14,368 bases of DNA, from the UHGV virus genome UHGV-0310616; one strand, given 5' to 3'. Numbering within the stretch: position 1 is the stretch's first letter; each line of letters opens with the position of its first letter. Both the position numbers and the translations under genes were made by a program. The notes beneath the pieces are model-generated. The model was not told the DNA's origin. It did no database searches and was given only the letters and a program-made list of their open reading frames with translations. Of this stretch, positions 1 to 13,727 are shown piece by piece. Origin of the DNA: a virus.

Positions 1-89
1 CATTGTGAGTTGTAGGTATTCTGGTTTTCCAGAACCATACGAATAGCGCGTTGACGAACTTCAGGGGGAAATCGGTTATGTTTTGTCAT
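1..89 (-). CDS. IS3-family transposase OrfA, N-terminal fragment (29 codons visible, runs off the window)
   Basis: Minus-strand translation from ATG at 89-87: MTKHNRFPPEVRQRAIRMVLENQNTYNSQ..., matching the conserved N-terminus of IS3-family OrfA HTH proteins (from memory). Below the ORF-track length cutoff. Confidence 0.55.
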   Translation of the reverse strand, partial: MTKHNRFPPEVRQRAIRMVLENQNTYNSQ

Positions 90-141
90 CCTGGTTACCT
101 CTCTCAAAGAGTGTAGTCTCCAGGATTACCGGGGCGGTTCA
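1..141 (-). mobile_element. Left terminus of an IS3-family insertion sequence (partial; continues beyond the window start)
   Basis: Minus strand reads TGAACCGCCCCGG... (revcomp of 129-141), a typical IS3-family terminal inverted repeat beginning with TG, followed about 50 nt later by GAGAGG RBS and ATG (89-87) opening an OrfA-like reading frame. Confidence 0.55.
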
Positions 142-522
142 TGGTGTAATGATCTCTTTATCACACCAATGAGACAATTCTCTGATCGTTTTTTCTCGTA
201 ACTTTTTATCGAACTGGTGATACATACCCGCAGTTACTGCCAAAAGAACAGTTTCTTGCATTTCAATAAGTGACCAGACGTAGTTTACACCCTCCTCATA
301 TGCTTGCTCATAGGCTGCCATTGGGTCGTCAAAATCAGGATTGAAATGCTCAGCGGTATACTCCAGAAACTGTTTCTCTCGCTCCTCCGCCTCTTGGGTC
401 AGATCCCCAAACTGAGACAAAAGTCTCCGTCTTGCTTCCGAAACATAAAATTCGTGAGGTTCAAGAAAATAGGGCCGATCTACTTTAGCAAGCCAAAATG
501 TCACGAAGTTATCTGATGACAT
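139..522 (-). CDS. Hypothetical protein, 127 aa, acidic; stop codon coincides with the IS terminus
   Basis: ORF with AAGGA RBS 7 nt upstream of ATG (520-522 on minus). AT-rich relative to the island core. No domain recognised. Confidence 0.7.
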   Translation of the reverse strand: MSSDNFVTFWLAKVDRPYFLEPHEFYVSEARRRLLSQFGDLTQEAEEREKQFLEYTAEHFNPDFDDPMAAYEQAYEEGVNYVWSLIEMQETVLLAVTAGMYHQFDKKLREKTIRELSHWCDKEIITP

Positions 523-585
523 AACTTATCCTTGATAATTATTGTATGGATAGATTATCCAGAAATTTGCGAACTGAGTCGGTCA

Positions 586-596
586 TTTTTTTTTTT
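586..596. repeat. Homopolymeric T11 tract in a divergent intergenic region
   Basis: Eleven consecutive T at 586-596, between the start of the minus-strand gene (522) and the plus-strand gene at 669. Confidence 0.9.
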
Positions 597-668
597 GTGT
601 GCGCGTGATGTAATAAAGGTTCAGGAATATACTGTCAGTTTACTGAAAAACTGGCAACAGAGGCGGTT

Positions 669-896
669 ATGAGCGAGAGTTACGAGTTCTCAGCAGGTTG
701 TTTTTTGAAGCTATCAATATCTTCAGGGTATTTCACTATCAAAATTCAGGGAGATCTCCCCGCTCGTGCAGCTAGTGCCATCTTGGCAGATGATGTCGAG
801 CAGGTTTTATCTCAACTAGACAAATGTTTTCAGCTGAGTAATAGGCAACGAGAAGGGATCGTTAAGTATCTTATGTCGAAGGGGATGCAGCCTTGA
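669..896 (+). CDS. Hypothetical small protein, 75 aa; first gene of a coupled pair
   Basis: ATG at 669 with GAGG upstream; stop TGA (894-896) overlaps the ATG (896-898) of the next gene. Confidence 0.6.
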   Translation: MSESYEFSAGCFLKLSISSGYFTIKIQGDLPARAASAILADDVEQVLSQLDKCFQLSNRQREGIVKYLMSKGMQP

Positions 897-1354
897 TGAC
901 TTGGATCACCCAAACAGATAACTGGACAGGGATCGCGGCGTGGGCGGGTTTTGCTTTGTCCGTATTTCAATTACTAAAATCCAGAACATCGCTAAGGCTT
1001 TATCTCGGATGTGATCAGCACGAGGACAGGATATACGTTTCGAACATAAGCGCACACGATGTAACGTTGAGTGCAGCCGGTGTGGTAACAGCCAGTGGAC
1101 GCCTTAGAATGTTATCCGACGAATATTCGGACGAGAACATGATCACACCGATGCTGCCAAAAAGATTGAAAGCACGAGACGAAATGGTCTTGAACGTGCC
1201 ATTCATAAATAAGGCTCATCACAACAAAGTGCATCATCGTGGCGGGGTTTATATCAAAACATCTGACGGCAAGATGTTCAGTGATGTTTGTTGGATCAAA
1301 CGCCAATGGTGGTGGTTACTGTCTGTAATACTACGAGACACAAAGCGATACTAA
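896..1354 (+). CDS. Hypothetical membrane protein, about 152 aa
   Basis: Starts at ATG 896 (track start 893 is a TTG). Hydrophobic N-terminal segment GIAAWAGFALSVFQLL and a C-terminal hydrophobic/Trp-rich segment QWWWLLSVIL. Translationally coupled to the upstream ORF. Confidence 0.65.
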   Translation: MTWITQTDNWTGIAAWAGFALSVFQLLKSRTSLRLYLGCDQHEDRIYVSNISAHDVTLSAAGVVTASGRLRMLSDEYSDENMITPMLPKRLKARDEMVLNVPFINKAHHNKVHHRGGVYIKTSDGKMFSDVCWIKRQWWWLLSVILRDTKRY

Positions 1355-1434
1355 GTTGATTGATAGTCCGAGGTGATGTTCTGCCCAGCGTAGTTGCTGG
1401 GTGATACACCTTCAATGATTCTTGTTAGTGTGTA

Positions 1435-1443
1435 GGGGGGGGG
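1435..1443. repeat. Homopolymeric G9 tract immediately 5' of a start codon
   Basis: Nine consecutive G at 1435-1443, then C, then ATG at 1445. Confidence 0.9.
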
Positions 1444-1444
1444 C

Positions 1445-1663
1445 ATGTTGGATTTTAAAGCTGAGTTTGTTGGCGGCAGCCATAGCGGCGAGGTTATATC
1501 ACCGATGTCCGAGGTAGAACTTAATAAACTAGGGTATAGAGTCCATTTACGTGGTGCCCCCTCTGGCGATGAAATGCCTGTACACGTTGTTGTACCTATT
1601 GAATGGTCAGCGGATGAAGCACACAGAGCCATAATGCAGCGCTGGGGTAAACGCAGACGGTAG
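1445..1663 (+). CDS. Hypothetical small protein, 72 aa
   Basis: ORF directly downstream of the G9 tract, which could act as a G-rich Shine-Dalgarno. Composition more protein-like than the overlapping antisense ORF 1351-1674. No domain recognised. Confidence 0.35.
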   Translation: MLDFKAEFVGGSHSGEVISPMSEVELNKLGYRVHLRGAPSGDEMPVHVVVPIEWSADEAHRAIMQRWGKRRR

Positions 1664-2380
1664 ATGTCGCGCATTTCTCTTAAACTGGCTGCTGTGTTTG
1701 GTGCTAATTATCCATGCAAAGTGGCCTAAGCTACGTGGAAGAATGATCAGTTTCGCATTATTTGGTTCAAGGAGGGCTCCCCCACAGCCTCACTCTCTGA
1801 ATGCAAAACAGCCCCACAATCCCACTGTTAAAAGTCCCAGCTTGAAAATTGCACGCTTATGGTTGCCCCTCCCTCAACTCTATAGCTCGCCCGCGCCCCC
1901 GTGTGCATGTGCGTGCCCGCGCGTCAGGGGTCGCTGAGAAACCCTAAGATTTTGCTCATCCGAGACAAGCATTACAGGAGCGTGCTACTGAGCGAGATGC
2001 TGGCTGATTGCTGTTGCTGAATAACCGTGTGGGACGAGTGCTGCGATCATCTGCCTTTCACTGTGTATCTGTACATCCCTCTAAAACGATCTGTATCGCT
2101 CTGTGCTGCGTTCTGTGCTTCCAATGTGTGATTCAATGCCTTTGTGATTTCGAGATCGTGGCGGTGCCGTGCTGATCTGCTGCGTGCGCTCTACGCTGTG
2201 TTCGCTGGATGTGCCGGGGAATGCTGCTGTGGGGCGGTGCCAGTCTCTTTCGGGTATACCTGATAAAGACATAGACACACTGTCTCATTTGACTATCTAT
2301 AAAACTCTATTGACTACACATTATTGATGTGATCTCTTATAGGTCTTGCTGTGATATTTCATTGAGACTTAGGGGGAAGC

Positions 2381-3013
2381 ATGGCACACAATGCGCTTAT
2401 CTATTGCCGCGCCAGTACATCAGAGCAACACGCAGACCGGGCGCTGGGCTTGCTGCGAGAGTTCGCCAGTGATCGGGGCTGGCCTGTACGGGCGGAGTAC
2501 ATCGAGAACGCCAGCGGTGCGAGGCTGGCGCGTCCTGAACTAATGCGCTTGCTGGATGATGCGCAGGCCGGAGAGGTCTTGCTTGTCGAGAGCATCGACA
2601 GGCTAAGCCGCCTTACGCAAAAGGAATGGGCGACACTGAAACAGAGGATTCAGGATAAGGGACTGGTGATCGTTGCCGTTGACCTGCCAACCTCATGGCA
2701 ACTACTGAACGATACGGCGTCAGAGCTTACAGAGGGCATCCTGAGAGCTGTTAACGCAATGCTGATTGATATCCTCGCTACGATGGCACGAGTGGACTAC
2801 GAGACACGCAGAGCACGCCAAGCGCAGGGCATCAAGCGTGCCAAAGCCGAGGGGAAATATAACGGGAAGTCTAAGGATGAGAGCGCCCGTGAAACTGTCC
2901 GCGCTATGCTTACCGTTGGGAATAAACCAGAGCACATCATGAAAGCTGCCGGGATAAGCCGGGCAACGTTCTACCGTATCAAACGTGAGCTGTCCGCCAG
3001 CGTTACAGAGTGA
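2381..3013 (+). CDS. Small serine recombinase (resolvase/DNA invertase family), 210 aa
   Basis: N-terminal catalytic motif IYCRASTSEQ (serine nucleophile context), ESIDRLSR motif, and C-terminal HTH (GISRATFYRIKRE) laid out as in gamma-delta resolvase and Hin. GGGGGA RBS upstream. Confidence 0.9.
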   Translation: MAHNALIYCRASTSEQHADRALGLLREFASDRGWPVRAEYIENASGARLARPELMRLLDDAQAGEVLLVESIDRLSRLTQKEWATLKQRIQDKGLVIVAVDLPTSWQLLNDTASELTEGILRAVNAMLIDILATMARVDYETRRARQAQGIKRAKAEGKYNGKSKDESARETVRAMLTVGNKPEHIMKAAGISRATFYRIKRELSASVTE

Positions 3014-3454
3014 TGACCTACAGTCTGATGAGATGCCAGCACTGGCCGTTACTGGGCTGTGGGTGATGGATGGCCTACAGCTTTTGTATTGATATCAGAT
3101 ATTTATGTTATGCCTAATCTCGTAATGGTATGATTTATAATGTATTTCCGTATTACTTGCGGCTCTTGATATGAAGAGATGGCGGGGCTTTAGCCGTGCC
3201 AGACGATGAGTATCAAGATCAGATTGTGAATGTGATTTATCACTGAACAATTCGAGGGATGGGGCAGGGGAAGGGATCAAAGGCTGTGTTGTCCAATCAC
3301 TCAGCTAGATTTGAAGCAGGGCAACACCTTCGTTTTACCTTTAAAGTTGCATTTAAAATACATGTACAGAAAAGGGTTCTTCCCTTTCATCCCTTCTCCT
3401 AATCAGTGTTATCGCTTTTCGCTCTACACTGGCTGCGCTTCTCGCTATGCTCCA

Positions 3455-3497
3455 GCCCGCTCCATCGCCTTTGGCTCATTCCCGGCCTTCGCCCGCT
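3455..3497 (+). repeat. Degenerate att-core-like (tRNA 3'-end-like) repeats
   Basis: GCCCGCTCCA (3455-3464) equals the last 10 nt of the att core at 13718-13727. GGCTCATTCCCGGCCTTCGCCCGCT (3473-3497) resembles GGTTCGATTCCCTTCGCCCGCT of the core, with a 12-nt exact block CCTTCGCCCGCT. Confidence 0.3.
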
Positions 3498-3762
3498 GTG
3501 ATGCTCGGCCCTCCACGCAACCGTGCTTGCCAGGCAGTCAACGCGGCGGGGATAGAGTAGTGGTACGGTACTATATTGGGATATGGTACTCACAATGCCG
3601 CTTATAACCCCTTACATCCCAGCATCCCAACAAACCTACTGAAAGTTATCAGCAAATCATTCATCAAGTCAGACAGGGCAAGGCTTACAAAGGTGTTGAT
3701 TAAAAAATAATCAAATTAGAGTTTCTACTGTGGCAAAACGAACACCACTCGCTTGTGCATAC

Positions 3763-3830
3763 GTAGTGACCTACATGAAAGTCACTACTAAAGAGGGACA
3801 GAACATTCAACGTCACTGCTGACATGAAAT
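3763..3830. promoter_or_regulatory. Candidate operator/regulatory repeats upstream of the helicase gene
   Basis: Perfect inverted repeat GTAGTGAC (3763-3770) N10 GTCACTAC (3781-3788); third GTCACT at 3812-3817; direct repeat ACATGAAA at 3773-3780 and 3823-3830. Lies 75-140 bp upstream of ATG 3904. Confidence 0.3.
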
Positions 3831-3903
3831 TCTCTCTACGGGCAGCTCGGCGCTGCCGTCCTGCGCCTCGTTCTAAACTCACCTTAATTTTGGAGATTTC
3901 ACC

Positions 3904-5748
3904 ATGCCAACGAACCTACGCCGTTTGCTTGCGCAGGCTGCCGACGCTGACCCGCTCAATACCGCAAACGCAGATGTACAGCAAATGGTCGCTGACGGGA
4001 TTGTTATTCGGCGTTCCAAGATATGCCCGATAAAGCATAAACCCGTTAAGGCGGCATACAACACGAAGACCGAAGAGTTTTATTACAATGCTGATGGCTC
4101 CGCTATGACCCTGCGGGAATGGCGAGCGCTGCATGGTGTTCAACCGAAGAAGCAAAAACAGCGCTCTGACACGGGGTTGCGGCAAGTCATCCAGCCCGGT
4201 GACGCAATTCATTGCCGACGCGCTGAGATAGAAATGTGGCTCAACAAGAAGCCTGCTCGGTATGCTGACCCGCTGCCGCCTGATTTTCCCGGTGTTCGCG
4301 TAGATGATGCCGCATTGAAACCGCGCGAGCACGCCGTTTCGGCATCGACAACCGGGCAGAATGCTTTTCTCAAAGCCTGCCGCGAGTTCCTGATTTGTGA
4401 TGAGAAGACTATACACCGCATCAACAGGGGCATGAATAAACTGGAAGCGATGCGCAATTCAGATTTCAAACGCTACGGGGACTCAGCGGAGTTTCGTCAA
4501 TTGTGGTGTGGAGAGTCGAAACCTACCGAGGATAAATTTAACAGTACAAATCATCATTGTGACCCAAACGGCTTGGCAGTGTCGCCGTCTGTGCCGTCAC
4601 TGAATACAGCCTCTTATGAGTTTCGCCCGCTGGTTCGCTGTGACCGAAACGCACGCGTTAGCCTGTTGCCACCCGATGGGCTGGAGTGGAGGCCGGGGCA
4701 GTTGTCTGTTGCTGATGCGATCTTCTCCCGTGGTAGTGATGTGCTGGCCGTTCTGCCTACGGGTTATGGCAAGACCGCCGCCTTCGCTTATCCATTGATT
4801 TATGAGTCCCGCGCTGGCGTTGGCCTGTCTGTAATCGTGGTTCCCACTAATACCCTAAAGCGCCAGATTCTCCGCCAGTTGCGGGATGCTGGCGTTCACG
4901 CTGTGGCATTCGGTGACAAGTTGCCGAGGCACCGCAACGCTCAACAACTCGCGGGGCTGGCTGCCGGGGCGTTCCGTGTTGCTGTCGTTTCACCTGAGCA
5001 TCTTGTTCTGTCGAGTCAGGTCTTCGCGGCGCTGATGGCTTACGGCGTTGATCGTTTTATCATCGACGAAGCGCACACGGTTAAAGACTGGGATTTCCGA
5101 CCCGCTTACGAGGCCATGCAGCACTCGCTACAACATGCCTTTCTTTCGGCTCAACGCTGCGTATTTACGGCTACGCTGCTACGCGAAAATGAGCGCAGTT
5201 TAATGGCGTCGCTTGGCTGCCGTGGTGATTACGTAACATTCCGTGCTGATGTTGCTCGCGAAAATATCCAGTTGACGACAGTCAGACAGTGCCGCGAACG
5301 TTTCCGAGCGGCTATTGGTCTGGTCGAGGCTCTGCCGAAAGAAGAGAAGACGCTCATTCTCGTCAATGACCTTAAGACGTTGCGGGCGTACCTGAAACTC
5401 TTAGGCGACCGGGCGCGCCCATATCACTCGAAGACGATGCACTTGAGTAACGAAGAACGCCACGCAAACGCTGAGTGGTTTGCCACTACGCCGGGCGCAA
5501 TTCTGATTGCTACTAAAGCCTTCGGGCTGGGGGCTGATGTGCCAGACATTCGCAACGTCATCGTTACATATATTCCTGATGACCTGCCTGACCTCATTCA
5601 GATGATTGGACGAGCCGGGCGCGATGGTCAACCTGCCCGCGCGTTTCTGCTGTGGTCATCGCTGGCGCTGGATGCTGCGCCTGATGAGCTTGCTTACTTC
5701 TACCGCCCTGAAAACTGCAACTGGCAGTACATCGCTAAATACCTCTGA
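3904..5748 (+). CDS. RecQ-family (SF2) DNA helicase with a roughly 260-aa N-terminal extension of unknown function
   Basis: Motif I LPTGYGKTAAF; motif II IIDEAHTVKDWDFRPAY (RecQ-type DEAH...DFRP); motif III FTATL; motif V/VI ATKAFGLGADVPDIRNVI...GRAGRDGQPA. WRPGQ precedes motif I as in RecQ. No RQC/HRDC-like tail. GGAG RBS. Confidence 0.9.
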   Translation: MPTNLRRLLAQAADADPLNTANADVQQMVADGIVIRRSKICPIKHKPVKAAYNTKTEEFYYNADGSAMTLREWRALHGVQPKKQKQRSDTGLRQVIQPGDAIHCRRAEIEMWLNKKPARYADPLPPDFPGVRVDDAALKPREHAVSASTTGQNAFLKACREFLICDEKTIHRINRGMNKLEAMRNSDFKRYGDSAEFRQLWCGESKPTEDKFNSTNHHCDPNGLAVSPSVPSLNTASYEFRPLVRCDRNARVSLLPPDGLEWRPGQLSVADAIFSRGSDVLAVLPTGYGKTAAFAYPLIYESRAGVGLSVIVVPTNTLKRQILRQLRDAGVHAVAFGDKLPRHRNAQQLAGLAAGAFRVAVVSPEHLVLSSQVFAALMAYGVDRFIIDEAHTVKDWDFRPAYEAMQHSLQHAFLSAQRCVFTATLLRENERSLMASLGCRGDYVTFRADVARENIQLTTVRQCRERFRAAIGLVEALPKEEKTLILVNDLKTLRAYLKLLGDRARPYHSKTMHLSNEERHANAEWFATTPGAILIATKAFGLGADVPDIRNVIVTYIPDDLPDLIQMIGRAGRDGQPARAFLLWSSLALDAAPDELAYFYRPENCNWQYIAKYL

Positions 5749-5786
5749 GTCGAAAGGCTCCCCCTCATTCTCTGGAGTTAATCCAT

Positions 5787-6224
5787 ATGCCTGTTACCGA
5801 ACATGCGCAGCGTCGTGCTACGCGTGCGGATGCGCTCGTCACCGCACAACTTGCCTTCGCCCTGAACGGATATTCCTTCGATGGGTTAGCTGAGCGCCAC
5901 CGCCAGACTCTTAATCGTGCGGCCATCTTGCGCCAAGCTGGTACGCCGCTACAGCGGTATTGCCTGCTCAATCACTGTGAGCCTTGGGAATGTCTGGCCG
6001 CTGTGCTGAATAGATTCCGACGCCGGGAGGATGGCGCTCGTCTTTGGCCGACCTATCGCATGGCTCGTGAGGTCTTTAATGGGACTGTTCACCCTGCCAA
6101 CAAGACGCGCGACGAGATATTTCAATCTGTGCAGCGTCGCCTCTTTTTACCAAAACCAGTACACGCCGAAGTAATCCAGTACCTGCGCGTAATGGGGCTG
6201 ACAGGAGTTAATCCGCATGACTAA
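5787..6224 (+). CDS. Hypothetical protein, 145 aa
   Basis: ATG with GGAG RBS (GGAGTTAATCCATATG). First of a chain of overlapping, translationally coupled ORFs. No domain recognised. Confidence 0.7.
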   Translation: MPVTEHAQRRATRADALVTAQLAFALNGYSFDGLAERHRQTLNRAAILRQAGTPLQRYCLLNHCEPWECLAAVLNRFRRREDGARLWPTYRMAREVFNGTVHPANKTRDEIFQSVQRRLFLPKPVHAEVIQYLRVMGLTGVNPHD

Positions 6225-6423
6225 AACCGAGTTTGAAAATGAAACGTGGCGAATGAAAGGCTTGCTTCTTGGGGCGCTAATCCGCCGCCTTGAGGAAGAC
6301 AAGGCTGGTGAGTCGCGCATGGCCGCAGCGGAGTTATCCAGTGCGGTCAACTTCCTTAAGGCCAATGCCGTAGAAGCGCCGGACACGTCATTTAACCGTG
6401 TATTTGAGGATGACGAGCAATGA
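6217..6423 (+). CDS. Hypothetical protein, 68 aa
   Basis: ATG preceded by the same RBS context (GGAGTTAATCCGCATG); overlaps the end of the upstream ORF and the start of the next. Confidence 0.6.
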   Translation: MTKTEFENETWRMKGLLLGALIRRLEEDKAGESRMAAAELSSAVNFLKANAVEAPDTSFNRVFEDDEQ

Positions 6424-6596
6424 CACCCGCAGAGTTTAGAGCATGGTTTGCAACCCTGCCGCCGAACTATCAGAGCGCAGCACGAGCCATGTATGAAAGC
6501 GCCCGCAAGACGGGAACACACACCGCTTCCAGCCTGCTACTCATTCGCACGCTGATTGAAGATCAAATCAATTTCGATGGAGACTTTACCTTATGA
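6420..6596 (+). CDS. Hypothetical protein, 58 aa (not in the supplied ORF track)
   Basis: ATG 6420 overlaps upstream stop (ATGA), stop overlaps the next ATG at 6593 (ATGA). Translation MTPAEFRAWFATLPPNYQSAARAMYESARKTGTHTASSLLLIRTLIEDQINFDGDFTL. Fills an otherwise unexplained gap in a coupled operon. Confidence 0.5.
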   Translation: MTPAEFRAWFATLPPNYQSAARAMYESARKTGTHTASSLLLIRTLIEDQINFDGDFTL

Positions 6597-7156
6597 CAGT
6601 TCTGAGCCTGACCGATATCCAGCGCATCAATACCCTCGTTAAGCGCGACCTTCGCAATGTGGAAGAGGTAGTCGCTGCAACCGGATTTGACCCGGAGGAC
6701 GTTGACGCGGTGCTGCGCGGCGTTTATGTAGCCGACCTTGCCAACCAGTGGAGGGATGAAGCCGCTATTACGCTGGAGGAATACAACGCCATCCGTAAGC
6801 GCTGGAAACCGGGGCGCGGCCACTGGGACACTGCACATGCCATTGCACGCGATTTTCTAATTCGGCCTGAAACTGTGCTGGCTATCGTCCATTCCCGCTT
6901 TAGCAACGCCCACACCCACCCGATGCCGAAAGCAGTTAAAGCAAAGCCTGAGAAACCGCAGACGATGCGCCGCCTGTTGAGCGCCGACCTCGATCAGATG
7001 CACAAGCTGGAGCGCTTCGGCTGGAAACAAACCGAGATCGCTGGGGAGCTTGGGATCTCTGCTGAGGCTGTTGCTCATGTCCTGCGCCTGATGCGTAGCA
7101 AGTGGTCTTATCCAGATATTTTGGAAGACGTTAACACGCGATTCGGGGCTAAGTGA
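6593..7156 (+). CDS. HTH-containing protein, 187 aa (regulator or possible small-terminase-like DNA-binding protein)
   Basis: C-terminal segment GWKQTEIAGELGISAEAVAHVL resembles a sigma-70 region 4 / LuxR-type helix-turn-helix. Coupled to flanking ORFs. Confidence 0.7.
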   Translation: MTVLSLTDIQRINTLVKRDLRNVEEVVAATGFDPEDVDAVLRGVYVADLANQWRDEAAITLEEYNAIRKRWKPGRGHWDTAHAIARDFLIRPETVLAIVHSRFSNAHTHPMPKAVKAKPEKPQTMRRLLSADLDQMHKLERFGWKQTEIAGELGISAEAVAHVLRLMRSKWSYPDILEDVNTRFGAK

Positions 7157-7389
7157 TGGCAGAGAACGAACCGCTGCACCCTGCCGTTAACCCTGATCTC
7201 TATGTGAACCTTGACGAACAGCGCGAGGGATACGCCCCGTTTGAATCACGCGGCTGGGATGTGCTGACACAGAACCTGTCCGGGGAAGGGCGAACTGATC
7301 CCGGCCAAGCACCAAACCAGAATCCAAGGCAGCGACCGCGTGGCTCCGTTGGCGAGCGACGTTGGTTGCGTCGTCATGGCCTTATCTAA
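7156..7389 (+). CDS. Hypothetical protein, about 77 aa
   Basis: ATG 7156 overlaps upstream stop TGA (TGATG); track start 7153 is GTG. Confidence 0.55.
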   Translation: MAENEPLHPAVNPDLYVNLDEQREGYAPFESRGWDVLTQNLSGEGRTDPGQAPNQNPRQRPRGSVGERRWLRRHGLI

Positions 7390-7403
7390 CTGAGGATTAT
7401 TTC

Positions 7404-7643
7404 ATGAGCACCATTATTTTAATGGAGCCACGCCGCGCGGCTGATTGCGGGCAACAACTGAAATTCATTGCCGAAGCCTTGAATCTTCGTCAAATCGATT
7501 TGGCTCATGTGTACCAGATCGACAGACAAGATCTCGGCAAAGCGTACCACGGACAGAAGATGATTCCTGCCCGATGCGTACACGCGCACATGCTTTTACT
7601 TGAACTGGCACATCGCCGAGTTACATCACAAGAGGTTGCATAA
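7404..7643 (+). CDS. Hypothetical protein, 79 aa
   Basis: ATG 7404 preceded by GAGGAT RBS; the track's longer 7362 start has no RBS. Confidence 0.6.
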   Translation: MSTIILMEPRRAADCGQQLKFIAEALNLRQIDLAHVYQIDRQDLGKAYHGQKMIPARCVHAHMLLLELAHRRVTSQEVA

Positions 7644-7645
7644 TC

Positions 7646-8332
7646 ATGGCTGACCAGAATGTTAATCCGTACCTTTCGGGCGCTGATACTGCGCCGCAGC
7701 AATCGCCGTACATGGCCGCACCTGTAGGCGCTGACAACGGCGCTAGCAGATTCGACCAGACAACACCTGATGCTGATTTCCTGAAAACGCAGCCAGCGAA
7801 CATTAATCAAAGCTGGAACGAAAGTAACTTTGCCAACCAGCAAGACCAGCAGATTGATGTTGCTGCGCAAGTGGGCGACACGCTGCAATTACAGGATGGC
7901 ACTACTGTTGAGTTGACTCCTGAACTTCATGGGCTGATGGGGCAGTTTCACCAGTCTGTCGAAAGCCAGCTAGGGCAGGGGACAGTTGACGCGATGTTGC
8001 AGTACGCTGGCACGCTCGACGCCGGGACGCAATCAACCCTTGAACGGATGGTTATGTCTGGCGACCCTGCGCAGATGCAGCGGGCGGTTCATTATCTGCA
8101 AGAGCGTATGGTCGCAGGCACTGCGACTGGTTATGTCCCATCACAGGGGAACCCATACGGCCAGCCTGCCTCGCAACCTGTTGGTATGTCTCATGCTGAG
8201 TTTATTGCAGCGTATGATCAGCTTTCGCAGTGGGCGCAGCAATCAGGGTATGGCCCCGGCCATCGCCAGTACGACGATCAATACCGCGCTCTGGTTGCGC
8301 AGCGCTCCGCTGGCAAACGCGCTGGCCGTTAA
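7646..8332 (+). CDS. Q/N-rich acidic protein, 228 aa; putative capsid scaffolding protein
   Basis: Low-complexity Gln/Asn/Asp-rich protein encoded two genes upstream of the capsid gene, echoing the scaffold-capsid order of T7-like phages. Function is inferred from position and composition only. Confidence 0.6.
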   Translation: MADQNVNPYLSGADTAPQQSPYMAAPVGADNGASRFDQTTPDADFLKTQPANINQSWNESNFANQQDQQIDVAAQVGDTLQLQDGTTVELTPELHGLMGQFHQSVESQLGQGTVDAMLQYAGTLDAGTQSTLERMVMSGDPAQMQRAVHYLQERMVAGTATGYVPSQGNPYGQPASQPVGMSHAEFIAAYDQLSQWAQQSGYGPGHRQYDDQYRALVAQRSAGKRAGR

Positions 8333-8491
8333 GCAATCGCCTGTCCTGTCTTCCCCACGTCTTAACCTTACGTTTTAGAGCCTGAATCGCGTTGTACATC
8401 GCCAGATGTACATTCGTATACCTGCACCTGTAAAACGCGAAATTACCTCTCAAACACCACACATAAACCCACTTTGCATTGAGATCTGACA

Positions 8492-8839
8492 ATGACCTTA
8501 CTGACACCTGAAAACGTGGCAGCGGCTAGGGCTGCCCGTAGCGCGAGGATTGAACACTGGAAAGCCAACGCCAGCCAGCTTAAGCAGGACTTTGCTGACG
8601 AAGCGCACTGGCGGCGGCTCGCCTCACGCTTCGGCGTGCGTATGCCCTCGGCGTATGTTCCCGGCTCCGAGCTGCGATTGCTGCGCCGGGCGGCCAAACG
8701 CGCGGGCATCTCTGGTGCTGATATGCGCGATGCTTTTGGTGGGGGCGTTGCGCACCTGCACGAGCTTAATCCCCATTGGCCTGCCTTCGCGCTTATCGGC
8801 CTGATTCTTGAGATCGCGGCTGAAAAAGCTGCTGCCTGA
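8492..8839 (+). CDS. Hypothetical protein, 115 aa
   Basis: ORF between the putative scaffold and capsid genes; same strand and GC content as neighbours. Confidence 0.6.
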   Translation: MTLLTPENVAAARAARSARIEHWKANASQLKQDFADEAHWRRLASRFGVRMPSAYVPGSELRLLRRAAKRAGISGADMRDAFGGGVAHLHELNPHWPAFALIGLILEIAAEKAAA

Positions 8840-8907
8840 TTCATCCCATTCTCTTTTCCCCTTTTCCATAAATCGCGCTGGCTAACGCTGGCGCGGGAGC
8901 TATTTCT

Positions 8908-9903
8908 ATGACTGACAATGTTTATACCCCTGACCAATTCCGCCCGCACTGGGGCGGTGTAGATGCTGACAACGACATTCACATTGAAGCGTATGACCGG
9001 GACGTTCAGACCCGCCTTGAGGCAAAGAGCGTGTTTCTCGCCGAGGGGCTGAGCACATACAAGCCGCTGAAAAACAGTAATCAGTATCGTGTAGACCGCC
9101 TGAGCGGAGATCTGGAGGTGAAGGGCAGAACCGCAGGGCAATCGCTGGAGCCTACCGCCGTTAAGTCGGACAAGCTGATTATCTCTGTGGATACGCTGAG
9201 CTATATCCGCATCCCGATTGACTATCAAGACGACTGGACAGCGCCCACCTTTCGCGCAGAGCTGAGCCGCAACATGGGGACAGCCCATGCAAAGTTCTAC
9301 GACGAAGCGCACACTATCCAGCTAATCAAAGCGACTGACTTTGTACCGCCGCCTACGTTGCAACCAACGTTTAACCCGCTGACGGATAATGTTGTCTCGC
9401 TCGACCTGACAACGGGGAGCGAAGAGGATGCGGCTAACGAACTGGTTCACGCTATTAAAGCTGCTGTTAATCGATTCCTAACTGAAAAAGATATTCCGGT
9501 GGCGGAGCTGTGCCTTCTCATCGACCCAGCTTGGTTCAGCATCCTGATGGAACATAAGAAGTTGATGAACGTCCGTTACAGCCGGGATAGTGGCAATGAT
9601 TACGCATGGCGTCGCGTTGGCTATGTCGCTGGGGTGCGAGTTATTGAGCTGAACAGTTACCCGCAGGAAGCCATTACCGCGCATGAACTGGGCGCTGATT
9701 ATGATGTGACCGCAGGGGAAGCGCTGACACGGGCGACGCTGTTCCGGCCTGCGTCTGTACTTGTGACAGTCGAAGCGCAGAGCGTTATCAATCGCCAGTG
9801 GGATGATGAACGCGAAATGACAATGGTGATGGACTCATATCGCCTGTTCAATGTTGGGCTGCGCCGCCCTGACTGCGTTATAAATTTCCGACAAGCTGCA
9901 TAA
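8908..9903 (+). CDS. Major capsid protein, T7 gp10-like family (HK97 fold), 331 aa
   Basis: GGGAG RBS. By recollection of T7 gp10, several blocks align: KLIISVDTL...IDYQDD...RAEL...G...A...DEA, DPAWFSIL...VRY, and the C-terminal ...Y...GLRRP...VINF matching T7 ...Y...GLRPE...VVF. Size also fits. Not verified by search. Confidence 0.6.
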   Translation: MTDNVYTPDQFRPHWGGVDADNDIHIEAYDRDVQTRLEAKSVFLAEGLSTYKPLKNSNQYRVDRLSGDLEVKGRTAGQSLEPTAVKSDKLIISVDTLSYIRIPIDYQDDWTAPTFRAELSRNMGTAHAKFYDEAHTIQLIKATDFVPPPTLQPTFNPLTDNVVSLDLTTGSEEDAANELVHAIKAAVNRFLTEKDIPVAELCLLIDPAWFSILMEHKKLMNVRYSRDSGNDYAWRRVGYVAGVRVIELNSYPQEAITAHELGADYDVTAGEALTRATLFRPASVLVTVEAQSVINRQWDDEREMTMVMDSYRLFNVGLRRPDCVINFRQAA

Positions 9904-9919
9904 CAAAAGGGGCCGAGCC

Positions 9920-10447
9920 ATGAATATTGATGCTTATGCCCCGGAGCTGTTGCGCTCTTTGTTTCGGTACGATGCGAAGACTGGCCGCCTGTTCCATGCA
10001 GTAGACCGGATCGGAGCCAACAAGCGGATTTACGCTAAAGCCGGGGAACTGGCCGACACGGTAACGGACAGCGCCGGATATAGGCGCGTATCTGTCCGCA
10101 TCAATGGCAAATCTCATGCGCTATACGCCCACCGTGTCGCCTTCATCATTGCTAATGACGGTATCCCTGCCGGGATGCAAATCGACCATATCAACGCGGT
10201 ACGCGATGACAACCGCCTTATCAATCTCCGCACGGTTACGCCACAAGAGAACCAGCACAATTACCGCAAAGCCAAGGGTTATAGCCACCATGCCTGCTCT
10301 GGCAGATGGGAGGCTTACATTCGCGTTGGTGGTGTTCGCCATCACCTCGGCTTATTCACTACCGAAGCGGCGGCGCGTGCTGCGTACCTGAAAGCTAAAG
10401 CCAGATACCATCCGTCAACGCCAGCCGATTTATTGCAGGCTGCCTAA
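9920..10447 (+). CDS. HNH endonuclease with C-terminal AP2-like DNA-binding domain, 175 aa
   Basis: HNH signature HRVAF...QIDHINAVRDDNRLINLRTVTPQENQHN (His, Asn, Asn, His core) followed by W-EAYIRVGGVRHHLGLFTTEAAARAAY, typical of the AP2 domain attached to phage HNH nucleases. Confidence 0.8.
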   Translation: MNIDAYAPELLRSLFRYDAKTGRLFHAVDRIGANKRIYAKAGELADTVTDSAGYRRVSVRINGKSHALYAHRVAFIIANDGIPAGMQIDHINAVRDDNRLINLRTVTPQENQHNYRKAKGYSHHACSGRWEAYIRVGGVRHHLGLFTTEAAARAAYLKAKARYHPSTPADLLQAA

Positions 10448-10465
10448 TCCTCGGAGGTTCCATTA

Positions 10466-10891
10466 ATGGCTGATGAAAAGCCGATTAGAGCGCTGGCAGA
10501 TGATGACCCGCGCCGCCAGCGGTACGCTGAACTGTTGGCGCAGGCTGGCCGCATGACTATTCCACGGCTGCATCCGGGCGATGCTAACAGTGTTATGAGT
10601 CAGCTTGCGACAATGCTCGGAGCACCTGTCCCGATAGTAGGTGCTATGACTGAGCACGCCGCTGCATGGCGTGCCTGTCTTCTGGAGCAAGGGCTTGGTG
10701 ATCTTCTGGATGGCTTGAGTAAGCAGGTGCTGACCATCTTCTTTCTGCTCTGCTGGAGAGACAGCGCCTTGCGATTGGCGGGTAAGCAAAAGGAACGGTT
10801 TGCAGCGGCCAGCGAGGGTTTGACCATTGAGCAATACCGGGCAATGCACCCGGCTTACAGAGAGGATAAAGAAAATGATAACCACGATTAA
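10466..10891 (+). CDS. Hypothetical protein, 141 aa
   Basis: GGAGG RBS upstream of ATG 10466. No domain recognised. Confidence 0.7.
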   Translation: MADEKPIRALADDDPRRQRYAELLAQAGRMTIPRLHPGDANSVMSQLATMLGAPVPIVGAMTEHAAAWRACLLEQGLGDLLDGLSKQVLTIFFLLCWRDSALRLAGKQKERFAAASEGLTIEQYRAMHPAYREDKENDNHD

Positions 10892-11174
10892 ATTAAGGTG
10901 GCGGTACATCGAGCCGCCACCAATGACTGGCGCACTCGCTGACCTGAAACAGTGGGTAATGGATACCGGAGAGCCTGAGCTTGAAGCTAAATTTCGTAAG
11001 CTGCTGGGGCTGATGCGCCGCAATGGTATCAGTGACGAACGTGTTAATGCGATGGCCGCCGAGCTTTATGCTCTGGTATGCCAACGCCAGCGCGAAGAAT
11101 ACGAAGCCTGCAAACGGGCTGCATCTGACAGTGGAGGCTTTGAATCATGGTTACACGGACAGACCAACTACTAA
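10875..11174 (+). CDS. Hypothetical protein, 99 aa
   Basis: ATG 10875 with AGAGGA RBS 8 nt upstream (track start 10827 is TTG). Overlaps the upstream gene by 17 nt. Confidence 0.6.
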   Translation: MITTIKLRWRYIEPPPMTGALADLKQWVMDTGEPELEAKFRKLLGLMRRNGISDERVNAMAAELYALVCQRQREEYEACKRAASDSGGFESWLHGQTNY

Positions 11175-11584
11175 GAAAAGCGATGCGAGGCTATCTGGAA
11201 TATCTCGGCAACATGCCGCTAGCGGAACGCATTAAAAATTCTGCTGCGTTCGATGATGTGTATCACTTCCTGTTGAATGGTTCAGGACGGCTGGAGTTGC
11301 GCCGCGCTGATGTGGCCGCTGTCCGTGTCTTCCTGTGGAATTATCAATACCGACGCTGCGCGGTGACAGCTAAGCCGCTACGCCTCGCGTCTGCTGTATT
11401 GGATCACTGTCACCGAACTGGACGTGTGCGCGCTGTGGTTCATCGTTCGGCCAATGCAGCGGAAGGTGGTTATTATGTGGGAAATTTGTGCGGACTCTCA
11501 CGAGGTAGCATGTTAAGCATGCTACCTGCCTACCGCCGACAATACAAGGGGTTGGGCGTTATTTATCCAAGACAACATGCGTGA
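11147..11584 (+). CDS. Hypothetical protein, 145 aa
   Basis: GGAGG RBS; overlaps the end of the upstream ORF. Last gene of the GC-rich block. Confidence 0.65.
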   Translation: MVTRTDQLLRKAMRGYLEYLGNMPLAERIKNSAAFDDVYHFLLNGSGRLELRRADVAAVRVFLWNYQYRRCAVTAKPLRLASAVLDHCHRTGRVRAVVHRSANAAEGGYYVGNLCGLSRGSMLSMLPAYRRQYKGLGVIYPRQHA

Positions 11585-11670
11585 TGAGATTATTTCTTTT
11601 ATTTTCATTCGGTTATGTGTTGTTGTGGCTGCCTTGTTACTTGCCTATATTTAAAACAATTCTTGACGGA

Positions 11671-11700
11671 TTGACGTAGATTGCGTAGGCTGAGCATAAA
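11671..11700 (+). promoter_or_regulatory. Candidate sigma-70 promoter for the AT-rich two-gene cassette
   Basis: Tandem TTGACG hexamers (11664-11669 and 11671-11676), then an 18-bp spacer and CATAAA (11695-11700), about 85 nt upstream of ATG 11786. Confidence 0.3.
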
Positions 11701-11785
11701 ACAGTTTCCTAATATGTCTCCAAACTGAGCTTCAACTTGAGAATACTTCGTTCCTACATCTCCCTTGAAGGGGTAGGAGGATAAT

Positions 11786-11995
11786 ATGAACTTTGATATG
11801 CGTACAAACCAAAATTGTGCATCGTTTTTTAACCCAGCAACCAAGGCGTTTGTCGTCGTTGATTCGTTTGACAACTACGAATTCGATGTGCGTGCTGGTA
11901 CTTTATCACGCACTGAATTTGTAGGCACCATCACAGCTTCAAACGATGAAGAGTTGAACAAGAAATTAGCTGAGATCACGGCTGCACACATATGA
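11786..11995 (+). CDS. Hypothetical small protein, 69 aa; first gene of an AT-rich cargo pair
   Basis: Strong AGGAGG RBS. AT-rich, in contrast to the upstream block. Stop overlaps the next ATG (ATGA). Confidence 0.65.
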   Translation: MNFDMRTNQNCASFFNPATKAFVVVDSFDNYEFDVRAGTLSRTEFVGTITASNDEELNKKLAEITAAHI

Positions 11996-12366
11996 TAACT
12001 CAACAGCAGATTGATGATTTAGTTGCAGATATTAACGATATCTTGGAAGAAGATAGAGCCAAGCTAAAGATGTCATTTCATTTTGCTGTTGATAGACTTA
12101 ATGATCCGCGTAATAAACCTCCAATCACGTTAGCTGAGTTGAGAGTGATTTTTACAAATTTCATTGGACAACACTTGCAGACAATTCTAGGCAAAGATGA
12201 GGGATTTTCCTTCACTATCAAGTGTCAGAAATCTGGTATTGCTATACCGTGCGCTATAGAGCATGAACTTGATATCGGTGCAAAGTGGGTAGTTCAGCAA
12301 GTGATCACCATCATGCGGAATCCGCAGTTTAACGCGTATCATGGTGATGTCATCTTTGATGTTTAA
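11992..12366 (+). CDS. Hypothetical protein, 124 aa; second gene of the AT-rich cargo pair
   Basis: Translationally coupled to the 69-aa ORF and followed directly by a terminator. No confident domain assignment. Confidence 0.7.
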   Translation: MITQQQIDDLVADINDILEEDRAKLKMSFHFAVDRLNDPRNKPPITLAELRVIFTNFIGQHLQTILGKDEGFSFTIKCQKSGIAIPCAIEHELDIGAKWVVQQVITIMRNPQFNAYHGDVIFDV

Positions 12367-12370
12367 AAGA

Positions 12371-12392
12371 AAGGCGCTATAGCGCCTTTTTT
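12371..12392. terminator. Bidirectional rho-independent terminator between convergent genes
   Basis: Stem AAGGCGC (12371-12377), loop TATA, stem GCGCCTT (12382-12388), preceded by an A-run and followed by a T-run; sits between the cargo operon (+) and the integrase (-). Confidence 0.6.
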
Positions 12393-13611
12393 ATAAACAC
12401 GGATAACTGACCAACTCCACATACTCCCATAGTTCTTTCATCCCTGCTCCCTTGCTATATGTCCTGAAAGCTTCCGTTTTAGCTTTTTGTTCGGTATGCC
12501 CGGTTATTGCCCCTATGCGCTGTTCTGGTACTCCTGCTCTGTCTAAGCAAGTAATAAAGTGACCACGCAGGGAGTGGAAGCATTGGCGATCTGTAGCCGC
12601 TGACAGCACGCGACGGCGTAGCCGTGTAAATGCCTGCGAGTACCACGGGCCACGCTTACCGTCGGCACGTTTAATCTTGTTCGATTGGGGGAGCAGGTAT
12701 TCACCGTTGTTCTGCGCAAGGTATTTATCAACGATGCTGATTAACAGCGAGTGTATGGGGACGTGCCTTACACCCGCTTTAGTTTTAGATTTGCTGACGT
12801 AGAAGCAGCGTACCCCTTCAACTTTGATAATCTCAACTCGTTTGATGCTGGCGATTTCGTCGAGACGCATACCGGAATACAAACCGATTATGATTACGTC
12901 TCGTATCTCGCTACCTGCCTCTTTTATTAATGCCTGTAGCTGGTGTAGTTCAAAAGGTTGATAACTTTCGTTCGTCTGGCGGGCTTCCAGATTGTGGCCG
13001 TGAAAGGGATTATCAGGGGCGATATTGTCATATTTACGCCGGGCGAAGTCATACAGCGTCCCTAAGCAGGTTAACCAGTTTTGCAGCGTCTGGCGGGAAA
13101 ACTTATCTTGGTTCGCTTCCAGAAAGTCAGAGACGAGCCGCCGCCCGATTCCATTTATTGTAATGGTTGGGCGTTTTATTGAATTAGTAAATGCCGATAC
13201 AGCGCGAACTGATTTACTCAGCGTGGAATAAGAGCGCCGATCTTTGTATTGCTCTGCATATTCTTTACTGACATCTGTCAATTTTGGTGATGCTGGTTTT
13301 CCCCGCTCTGCTGGAATAGTTGCGGGTGTGGTAATGCTGCTGGATACCCCCGCCAGCAAGTGAAGATCTGTTACAGCGGAATGAATCCGGGTAATGGGGT
13401 TATCCGGTTTCATCATGAGCTGTAGCTTACGGAACTCTAATAAATATTGGTCACGGAAAATGCGAGCTTGCATGATGTCCCGTGTGCCTGTCGATTTCTT
13501 GAGCGAGCGCCGCCCGTTCCAGAGGTGGCGCATGTAGACCGGAATATAGATTTGAAAGATGAATATCCCATCTTTGTTTGCATAAAGATAAGAAGTCTTC
13601 TTGATTGGCAT
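12391..13611 (-). CDS. Tyrosine-type site-specific integrase, about 406 aa
   Basis: C-terminal catalytic region with HSLRGHF...GHT...RTYSK (His/Arg/His/Tyr arrangement of tyrosine recombinases); sits beside a tRNA-derived att core. Probable ATG start at 13611 (MPIKK...) with AAGG upstream; the track's 13641 start is TTG. Confidence 0.85.
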   Translation of the reverse strand: MPIKKTSYLYANKDGIFIFQIYIPVYMRHLWNGRRSLKKSTGTRDIMQARIFRDQYLLEFRKLQLMMKPDNPITRIHSAVTDLHLLAGVSSSITTPATIPAERGKPASPKLTDVSKEYAEQYKDRRSYSTLSKSVRAVSAFTNSIKRPTITINGIGRRLVSDFLEANQDKFSRQTLQNWLTCLGTLYDFARRKYDNIAPDNPFHGHNLEARQTNESYQPFELHQLQALIKEAGSEIRDVIIIGLYSGMRLDEIASIKRVEIIKVEGVRCFYVSKSKTKAGVRHVPIHSLLISIVDKYLAQNNGEYLLPQSNKIKRADGKRGPWYSQAFTRLRRRVLSAATDRQCFHSLRGHFITCLDRAGVPEQRIGAITGHTEQKAKTEAFRTYSKGAGMKELWEYVELVSYPCL

Positions 13612-13699
13612 GGTAATTACCTTGTAATCTACCGCTACCAACTACCGGGATAAGTACCGCGATTACTTATTTTGGTTCACAATTCATAGGGTTAGCAAA

Positions 13700-13727
13700 G
13701 AGGGTTCGATTCCCTTCGCCCGCTCCA
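13700..13727 (+). other. attR core: 28-bp copy of the 3' end of tRNA-Gly (glyU-type, CCC anticodon), not a complete tRNA
   Basis: GAGGGTTCGATTCCCTTCGCCCGCTCCA contains the T-arm (GGTTCGATTCC), the 3' acceptor strand and CCA, matching the E. coli glyU 3' end from memory. Upstream sequence is not tRNA-like. Confidence 0.7.

Follow-up and report, generated by a model that had tools for sequence, protein, structure and literature searches.

The virus genome UHGV-0310616, a stretch of 14,368 nucleotides (the window, throughout), raises the question of what a small mobile element does with a helicase that joins a RecQ-like catalytic core to some 260 N-terminal residues of no recognizable kind. The gene (window 3904-5748, + strand; 614 amino acids from an ATG start; RefSeq WP_001142870.1, annotated 'DEAD/DEAH box helicase') lies in an Escherichia coli chromosomal island, and the list of open reading frames (ORFs) confirms it as the largest there, as stated in an earlier note drawn up from the letters of this DNA. 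Its product is best described, from the alignments and models presented below, as a RecQ-type superfamily 2 (SF2) motor to which a mobile element has fitted an orphan N-terminal module. The position of the gene, the synteny of the island, and the analogy with known phage satellites lead us to propose, with slightly less than even confidence, that it is the satellite's own replication helicase and probably its initiator.

The helicase is a real gene under purifying selection along its full length. A Shine-Dalgarno sequence, GGAG (3892-3895, + strand, as read from the sequence), stands 8 nt 5' of the ATG, and the alignment of the upstream regions of 10 related islands shows an invariant TGGAG at the ribosome-binding site. 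The first codons (MPTNL.RLL) are kept in the ten related islands, and the start together with codons 1-110 is conserved in homologs as low as 32% identity. Compared with nine homologous loci, the ratio of nonsynonymous to synonymous substitution rates (dN/dS) lies between 0.05 and 0.32 in codons 1-110 and between 0.13 and 0.29 in codons 111-262, as against 0.05-0.13 in the core; these low values and the conserved start and first codons thus indicate that the entire N-terminal region is translated and selected. Of 5426 complete E. coli genomes, 60 carry the gene, each as a single copy, among them that of the enteropathogenic E. coli (EPEC) strain E2348/69. A scan of 1.84 billion representative proteins confines the family to Enterobacteriaceae, and 50,697 phage records contain no close relatives of either the N-terminus or the core; the candidate helper genome likewise holds no homolog of the N-terminus.

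The RecQ-type SF2 core spans residues 261-590 (4684-5673, + strand) and comprises two RecA-like domains with motifs 0 to VI, namely 0 (WRPGQ), I (PTGYGKT), Ia, II (DEAH with the aromatic loop W-DFRPAY), III (FTAT), IV, V, and VI (GRAGRDG), so that in its SF2 core the protein conforms to the RecQ family. The residues K290, D388, E389, H391, R570, G572, and G575 do not vary even when canonical RecQs are added to the alignment. Pfam returns DEAD (residues 264-428) and Helicase_C (478-575) and no others, and the NCBIfam and PDB RecQ alignments all start at residue 261 and end at about 586-601 (261-586 for TIGR01389 and TIGR00614). The core matches RecQ, WRN, and BLM in PDB sequence searches, with 28-33% identity to RecQs over about 330 residues, and a Foldseek search with the full-length AlphaFold model (mean predicted local distance difference test [pLDDT] 74.9; predicted template modeling score [pTM] 0.66) recovers the RecQ, BLM, WRN, and RECQ1 catalytic cores as the best folds (4tmu, E 1e-20). 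The core is an intact, ATP-driven SF2 motor of the RecQ type, with all ATPase residues kept.

The resemblance to RecQ ends shortly after the core. The protein terminates 24 residues past motif VI, where the Zn-binding sub-domain of RecQ would begin, with a short conserved tail (residues 591-614, PDELAxxYRPENCNWxYI..L; 5674-5745, + strand) that was delineated from alignments to homologs and to canonical RecQ and holds a single cysteine. The canonical RecQ alignment ends at residue 601 of 614, and that RecQ runs about 265 residues further; RecQ_Zn_bind (PF16124), RQC (PF09382), and HRDC (PF00570) have no Pfam match in the helicase at E<=1. The scores for recQ_fam (TIGR00614; 136.3 bits against a cutoff of 219.8) and recQ (TIGR01389; 146.8 bits against 640.2) lie below the curated thresholds, and for this reason, together with the lack of the three defining accessory modules, we do not file the protein as RecQ proper. 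With the RecQ helicases (E. coli and C. sakazakii RecQ, PDB 1OYW and 4TMU; human WRN, BLM, and RECQ1), it has in common the SF2 core, motif 0 (xRPGQ), and the aromatic loop following the DEAH motif, whereas it differs from them in the absence of the Zn-binding, RQC, and HRDC domains, in the presence of the 260-residue N-terminal extension, and in its residence on a mobile island, canonical RecQ being a housekeeping gene.

The N-terminal region (residues 1-262) resists assignment to any known domain. Pfam finds no match to it in any of 16 family members, NCBIfam and PADLOC return nothing for residues 1-265 except a PADLOC model that derives from this family itself, and a PDB search with the family profile gave nothing significant (best PorL, E 0.17). 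A conserved cysteine cluster of the zinc finger type, a TOPRIM domain, and a Prim-Pol signal were likewise sought in it and not seen. An exhaustive phmmer scan of the 1.84 billion representatives yielded 14 matches at single-sequence HMMER sensitivity: two are full-length clusters of the same helicase, and the rest are fragments, frameshifted copies, and one spurious repeat protein. Of the candidates for other architectures, P0107 and P0109 proved to be frameshifted fragments, and P0110 is the spurious repeat protein; neither the exhaustive nor a word-based search found the N-terminus in any other domain architecture. At that sensitivity, the N-terminal 260 residues thus appear only in this helicase family.

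These results bear out most of what had been read from the letters of the sequence. All RecQ-type motifs are present, the core placed at about residue 265 starts within a few residues of that point, an RQC/HRDC-like tail is absent, and the N-terminal third is devoid of a recognizable motif such as a primase zinc finger or TOPRIM. The earlier note had also asked whether this region occurs beside other enzymatic domains in databases and whether it might be a known primase or origin-binding domain of satellite or phage replication proteins; neither was found, and the domain searches and structure prediction of residues 1-260 left us with no known domain and with confident modeling of residues 31-80 only.

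Conservation within the N-terminus is nevertheless marked: homologs just 32% identical in it retain about 40 invariant positions (e.g., W73, QPGD 97-100, H143, G151-x-N-A, R160, C165, R172-I173, G176, and W201). The family alignment is shallow, with two sub-families and an effective number of sequences of about 2, and the structure prediction of the N-terminus is unreliable outside residues 30-80. Within these bounds lies a β-rich basic sub-domain (residues 31-80, isoelectric point [pI] 9.6; 3994-4143, + strand) delineated from the model and from segment identities, the sole N-terminal part that is confidently modeled (pLDDT 83-87), with strands at 34-40, 47-53, and 58-61 and a helix at 70-76. 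Its identity to the window protein is either at least 92% or about 55%, regardless of the remaining protein: P0016 is 56% identical in residues 31-80 and 92-98% elsewhere, and P0020 is 96% identical in this segment and 58-74% elsewhere. The segment thus behaves like a cassette that can be exchanged and comes in two alleles, and by inspection its allele does not covary with neighboring genes.

Residues 31-125 as a whole are basic (pI 9.6-10). Overlapping the end of the cassette, a basic segment of pI 10 (residues about 66-127; 4099-4284, + strand) gives a faint and unconfirmed signal of an AlpA/excisionase-type helix-turn-helix (HTH) with phrog_66 and hhalign. The phrog_66 profile ('excisionase and transcriptional regulator') matches 5 of 16 family members below threshold, with a best E of 7.9e-4, and the local similarity between the N-terminal RAEIEMWLNKKPARYADPLPP and the AlpA RATIYDWLNPKSPRYDATFPK is short and not significant at the profile level; Pfam PF05930 and PF12728 do not match the helicase. 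Homology of the N-terminus to lambda Xis was considered and rejected (hhalign probability 0.3%). The most conserved N-terminal part follows (residues 126-201, GxNA..A.R..L.C and RI.RG; 4279-4506, + strand; defined by invariant alignment columns), with predicted helices at 147-162, 167-191, and 195-201 and 82-95% identity over residues 126-165 in all close homologs. Here, the pLDDT is about 56-76 over residues 151-200 as against 31-36 for residues 131-150, after which the 201-220 block (50-55) gives way to residues 220-262 (about 71-83), which lead into motif 0.

The matches of the helicase to defense catalogs offer one answer to what it does, namely that it is part of a Dpd-type or other anti-phage defense system: the PADLOC model PDLC02858 ('DpdF') matches residues 111-614 (window 4234-5748) over its full length with 888.6 bits, and other PADLOC DpdF models and the NCBIfam DpdF align to the helicase core. 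However, the 504-position PDLC02858 begins at the internal Met111 and is therefore seemingly built from mis-started members of this very helicase family, and the NCBIfam DpdF equivalog NF041063 reaches 128.5 bits against a cutoff of 550, over the core only. DpdF, of the 7-deazaguanine Dpd system, and the RecQ-like toxin PsyrT are like the island helicase in their RecQ-like SF2 core, with the PADLOC models aligning to residues 261-590, and unlike it in their N- and C-terminal regions. Moreover, PADLOC recovers no Dpd or other defense components among the 10 other island proteins scanned, the sole match being that of the HNH protein to a homing-endonuclease model, and the helicase gene is always found in a capsid-bearing island and never in dpd clusters. 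We consider a defense role of this kind very improbable. Defense-finder output may mislabel these islands as partial Dpd systems.

The window represents an E. coli chromosomal island that is 100% identical to NZ_LR536431, bar a 556-bp deletion in that strain; the island itself (window 1-13727, ~14 kb) is integrated at tRNA-Gly. It combines the features by which satellites are recognized, i.e., an integrase, an att repeat, a small size, morphogenesis and packaging genes, and an incomplete set of virion genes: among its remaining ORFs, none is long enough to encode a portal, a large terminase, or a tail protein. It looks like a phage satellite whose morphogenesis genes are of T7-like ancestry. 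Screening by Pfam and PHROGs for the hallmarks of the P4-like, PICI, cf-PICI, and PLE elements (alpA plus pri-rep; sid/psu/delta; the set of capsid, portal, protease, and TerL; PLE genes) detected none in the island, so that as a satellite it would fall outside these four described families. The searchable literature yielded no description of satellites of T7-like/Autographiviridae phages or of this helicase, and the island is probably an apparently undescribed satellite of virulent phages of this kind. The island capsid protein finds its best match, at 57% identity, among virulent Autographiviridae of the genus Bonnellvirus. One IMG/VR contig carries the island with flanks of chromosomal size, which are therefore not evidence of packaging.

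Across related islands, whose gene order is shared by six enterobacterial genera, the helicase is a fixed component. We retrieved 12 related loci from Escherichia, Enterobacter, Kosakonia, Kluyvera, Trabulsiella, and a metagenome, sited at tRNA-Gly or tRNA-Leu, and all of them show the same gene order, including the helicase; the synteny persists where the helicases have diverged to 43% and the capsid proteins to 60% identity. No alternative replication module was found in place of the helicase, which 12/12 related islands carry. The gene heads a tightly packed, co-directional block of ~8 kb, of which it is the first member 3' of an array of repeats. Among the other island ORFs scanned with Pfam, PHROGs, and PADLOC, no primase, polymerase, or second helicase was recognized.

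The array (3561-3848, + strand), defined by aligning the upstream regions of 10 islands, contains a ~26-nt motif, AATGAARGnnnCTAcTAAGGnGAAAG, repeated in direct orientation, together with an AT-rich stretch. A scan with a position weight matrix places copies in the window at 3714-3739 and 3774-3799 and weaker ones at 3561-3586 and 3823-3848 (all + strand); in each island, 2-5 copies on the + strand exceed the threshold. In every island, the matches of at least 15 bits are all on the + strand and solely upstream of the helicase operon, with weaker matches (11.7-14.7 bits), some on the minus strand, elsewhere in some loci. The coding strand of the Autographiviridae phage Lidtsur is enriched in a very similar motif, ATGARRGTRWCTGYTAAGGA: we count 4 matches that reach 12 bits (both strands), where 0.56 would be expected, and 3 that reach 15 bits, where 0.11 would be; of the four + strand matches listed, three exceed 12 bits. 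One of the Lidtsur sites is intergenic and upstream of the replication genes, two lie just past the RNA-polymerase gene, and one is at 33127. An exact-pattern scan of IMG/VR for the motif gave 4 single matches, by a rough estimate probably no more than chance, and identified no helper.

From the motif similarity and its enrichment, the most economical reading of the array is that it comprises tandem promoters for the single-subunit RNA polymerase of the helper. The primary replication origin of T7 consists of tandem phage promoters followed by AT-rich DNA, and by this analogy the array could therefore double as a T7-type origin. The upstream repeat region to which the earlier note had suggested that an origin might map thus does exist, although it looks more like helper-phage promoters than iterons and does not covary with the cassette of the helicase.

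We propose that the helicase is brought into play by infection with an Autographiviridae helper, whose RNA polymerase would transcribe the block, with the phage-type promoters timing helicase expression to infection. The basic N-terminal module, comprising the 31-80 cassette and the possible AlpA-like HTH, might then target the motor to island DNA or to a replisome protein of the helper or host; the 3'-5' RecQ-type motor would open the duplex, allowing the polymerase and primase of the helper or host to amplify the excised island, copies of which would be packaged into island-made capsids. In favor of this proposal, the helicase, with its catalytic motifs intact and every segment under purifying selection, is a fixed, syntenic core gene behind a promoter-like array, with no primase, polymerase, or second helicase recognized among the island ORFs scanned. 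The satellite-like make-up of the island, the restriction of the N-terminus to this family, its basic residues 31-125, and the weak AlpA/excisionase-like signal also count in its favor. Satellites also typically encode their own initiator and borrow the replisome of the helper, as exemplified by PLE RepA (PMC7145576). Of the two roles suggested in the earlier note, a replication initiator is hence the one best supported by position, synteny, and satellite analogy, whereas a nucleic-acid-sensing effector finds little support because the operon offers no partner nuclease and the island no Dpd or other defense partners.

In being a self-encoded replication-specificity protein placed early in the main operon, as proposed here, the helicase would resemble P4 alpha, the SaPI/PICI Pri-Rep, and PLE RepA. 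It departs from them in domain composition: its motor is of the SF2 RecQ type, it lacks Prim-Pol, TOPRIM, SF3/D5-type, DnaB-type, and RepA_N domains, and neither PHROGs nor Pfam links it to the P4 alpha, Pri-Rep, or RepA_N families. A parallel in logic is offered by UL9 of herpes simplex virus 1 (HSV-1), an SF2 helicase with an origin-binding domain, the DNA-binding domain lying at its C-terminus. In both, under our proposal, a non-ring SF2 3'-5' motor with a separate targeting domain would open an origin for a replisome supplied by others; the likeness is one of logic alone, with no kinship of sequence or fold claimed, and the targeting region of the island protein would be N-terminal. The fullest version of the proposal makes the helicase the initiator of an undescribed Enterobacteriaceae satellite family that lives on virulent T7-like podophages, switched on by the helper RNA polymerase through tandem phage promoters, with the N-terminus recognizing the origin or helper replisome through a new recognition fold as a bacterial counterpart of UL9; we regard this version as possible but less likely than not.

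Several points weigh against a role in initiation. To our knowledge, no RecQ-type SF2 helicase has been described as the initiator of a bacterial replicon, and Pfam, NCBIfam, and PHROG detect no primase domain in this one. Searches for iterons and tandem repeats found no classical array of either kind in the window, and the upstream repeats are better explained as promoters; a T7-type origin made of tandem promoters could let the helper replisome copy the island without any island-encoded initiator. The 31-80 cassette shows no covariation with the upstream repeats: L013 and L009 carry different cassettes (alleles A and B, respectively) downstream of the same repeats, and conversely the window and L015, both with allele A, differ in their upstream repeats. 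This is a weak argument against their being iterons recognized by the cassette. The binding of DNA by the N-terminal region is likewise a putative role: the AlphaFold model of residues 1-262 has a pLDDT of 57.7, and in hhalign residues 101-127 are 37-40% identical to the recognition-helix region of AlpA with a probability of just 10% (profile) or 19% (single sequence).

The nucleases of the island bear on a second answer. An HNH nuclease and an Endo VII nuclease (PF02945, phrog_423) are encoded in the same co-directional block, and the helicase could be a recombination or branch-processing enzyme that acts with them in recombination-dependent replication, concatemer formation, or debranching before packaging, its N-terminus mediating protein-protein contacts instead of origin recognition. 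T7-like phages depend on such steps; the candidate helper carries an Endo VII too; RecQ-family helicases, the closest structures being RecQ, BLM, and WRN, are recombination and branch-migration enzymes; and the lack of iterons and of covariation between the cassette and nearby DNA repeats would fit such a role. On the other hand, the helicase is without the RQC winged helix and the HRDC domain, with which canonical RecQs read branched DNA, and the whole morphogenesis module parts it from the nucleases. Nor does this account explain why an island that borrows most of its functions retains the helicase in every copy, and we judge it improbable.

We assign a somewhat smaller probability to a third answer, in favor of which stand the two freely reassorting alleles of the cassette, the pattern expected of a module that tracks a variable helper protein. 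The helicase, once expressed from the phage-type promoters, would then be an interference effector acting on helper DNA or the helper replisome, by displacing proteins, unwinding replication intermediates, or titrating a helper protein via the variable cassette, so as to lower the helper yield in favor of the island or the host population. Satellites commonly interfere with helper replication and packaging, and the replication of PLE itself contributes to the restriction of ICP1 (PMC7145576). Matches of the PADLOC DpdF and PsyrT models also relate the protein to RecQ-like members of defense catalogs, but these are generic to the RecQ core, except for the one model evidently built from this family. 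The cassette dN/dS is low (0.05-0.32), and the codons therefore give no sign of an arms race; further, no toxin/antitoxin or nuclease partner adjoins the helicase.

Were the replication role correct, it would reveal a new route by which satellites secure their own replication, with an SF2 RecQ-type motor and a private targeting domain in place of the known primase/SF3-helicase or RepA_N solutions, and would give an orphan 260-residue domain a role in targeting nucleic acids or a replisome. It would likewise point to satellites living on virulent T7-like phages in E. coli, Enterobacter, Citrobacter, Cronobacter, Kosakonia, Kluyvera, and Trabulsiella, with the EPEC prototype E2348/69, a standard laboratory strain amenable to experiment, as a carrier; these satellites would be of consequence where Autographiviridae are used in phage therapy and for our understanding of how lytic phages drive gene transfer. 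Even if our reading is wrong, the helicase remains a clean case in which a RecQ core has shed its accessory domains and been refitted by a mobile element. More surprising than the gene itself is the island around it.

Directly downstream of the helicase, on the same strand, is a 145-residue ORF, for which PDB searches gave no match, as they did for a 187-residue HTH protein that is also encoded downstream in the block. A 68-residue ORF (6217-6423) is a weak candidate for a T7-gp18-type small terminase (PF11123, E 3.3e-4; phrog_891, E 0.004); its best tblastn match in phage Lidtsur falls within the terS gene of that phage, and we consider it a candidate packaging-redirection protein. There follow a scaffold-like gene (7646-8332; 228 residues, half-length as compared with the 411 residues in Lidtsur) and the major capsid protein gene (8908-9903; 331 residues; phrog_267, E 3e-67). 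A capsid homolog 40% identical to that of the island is encoded at 2922-3923 of L017, a 7.7-kb contig of a betaproteobacterial Methylotenera metagenome-assembled genome, which may represent a phage or an element remotely related to these islands.

The tyrosine integrase gene (12391-13473) occupies the far end of the island, distal to the tRNA gene and beside attR (13700-13727), where the 28-nt 3' end of tRNA-Gly is repeated adjoining the integrase. A second recombinase, a serine recombinase of the resolvase/invertase type (2381-3013), lies upstream of the helicase and ranges from 25% to 97% identity among otherwise similar islands. The 556-bp deletion in NZ_LR536431 corresponds to window 2959-3514, between short repeats of the GGGCAAC type, and takes the 3' end of this gene along with part of the intergenic region. 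The conserved backbone of the related islands starts at about 1820-1836, near a stretch of ~86 nt (1836-1921) that is 72% identical to non-coding DNA near the right end of Lidtsur (40868-40953) and may mimic a phage pac site or terminal repeat. Between the Endo VII and integrase genes is a slot for variable cargo (window 11786-12366; L019 16889-17791), occupied in the window by two small ORFs with matches only in PHROGs, in E2348/69 by a gene for an AbiTii-domain protein, and in NCTC11023 by one for a DUF3606 protein; in this respect, the slot resembles the defense hotspots of other satellites.

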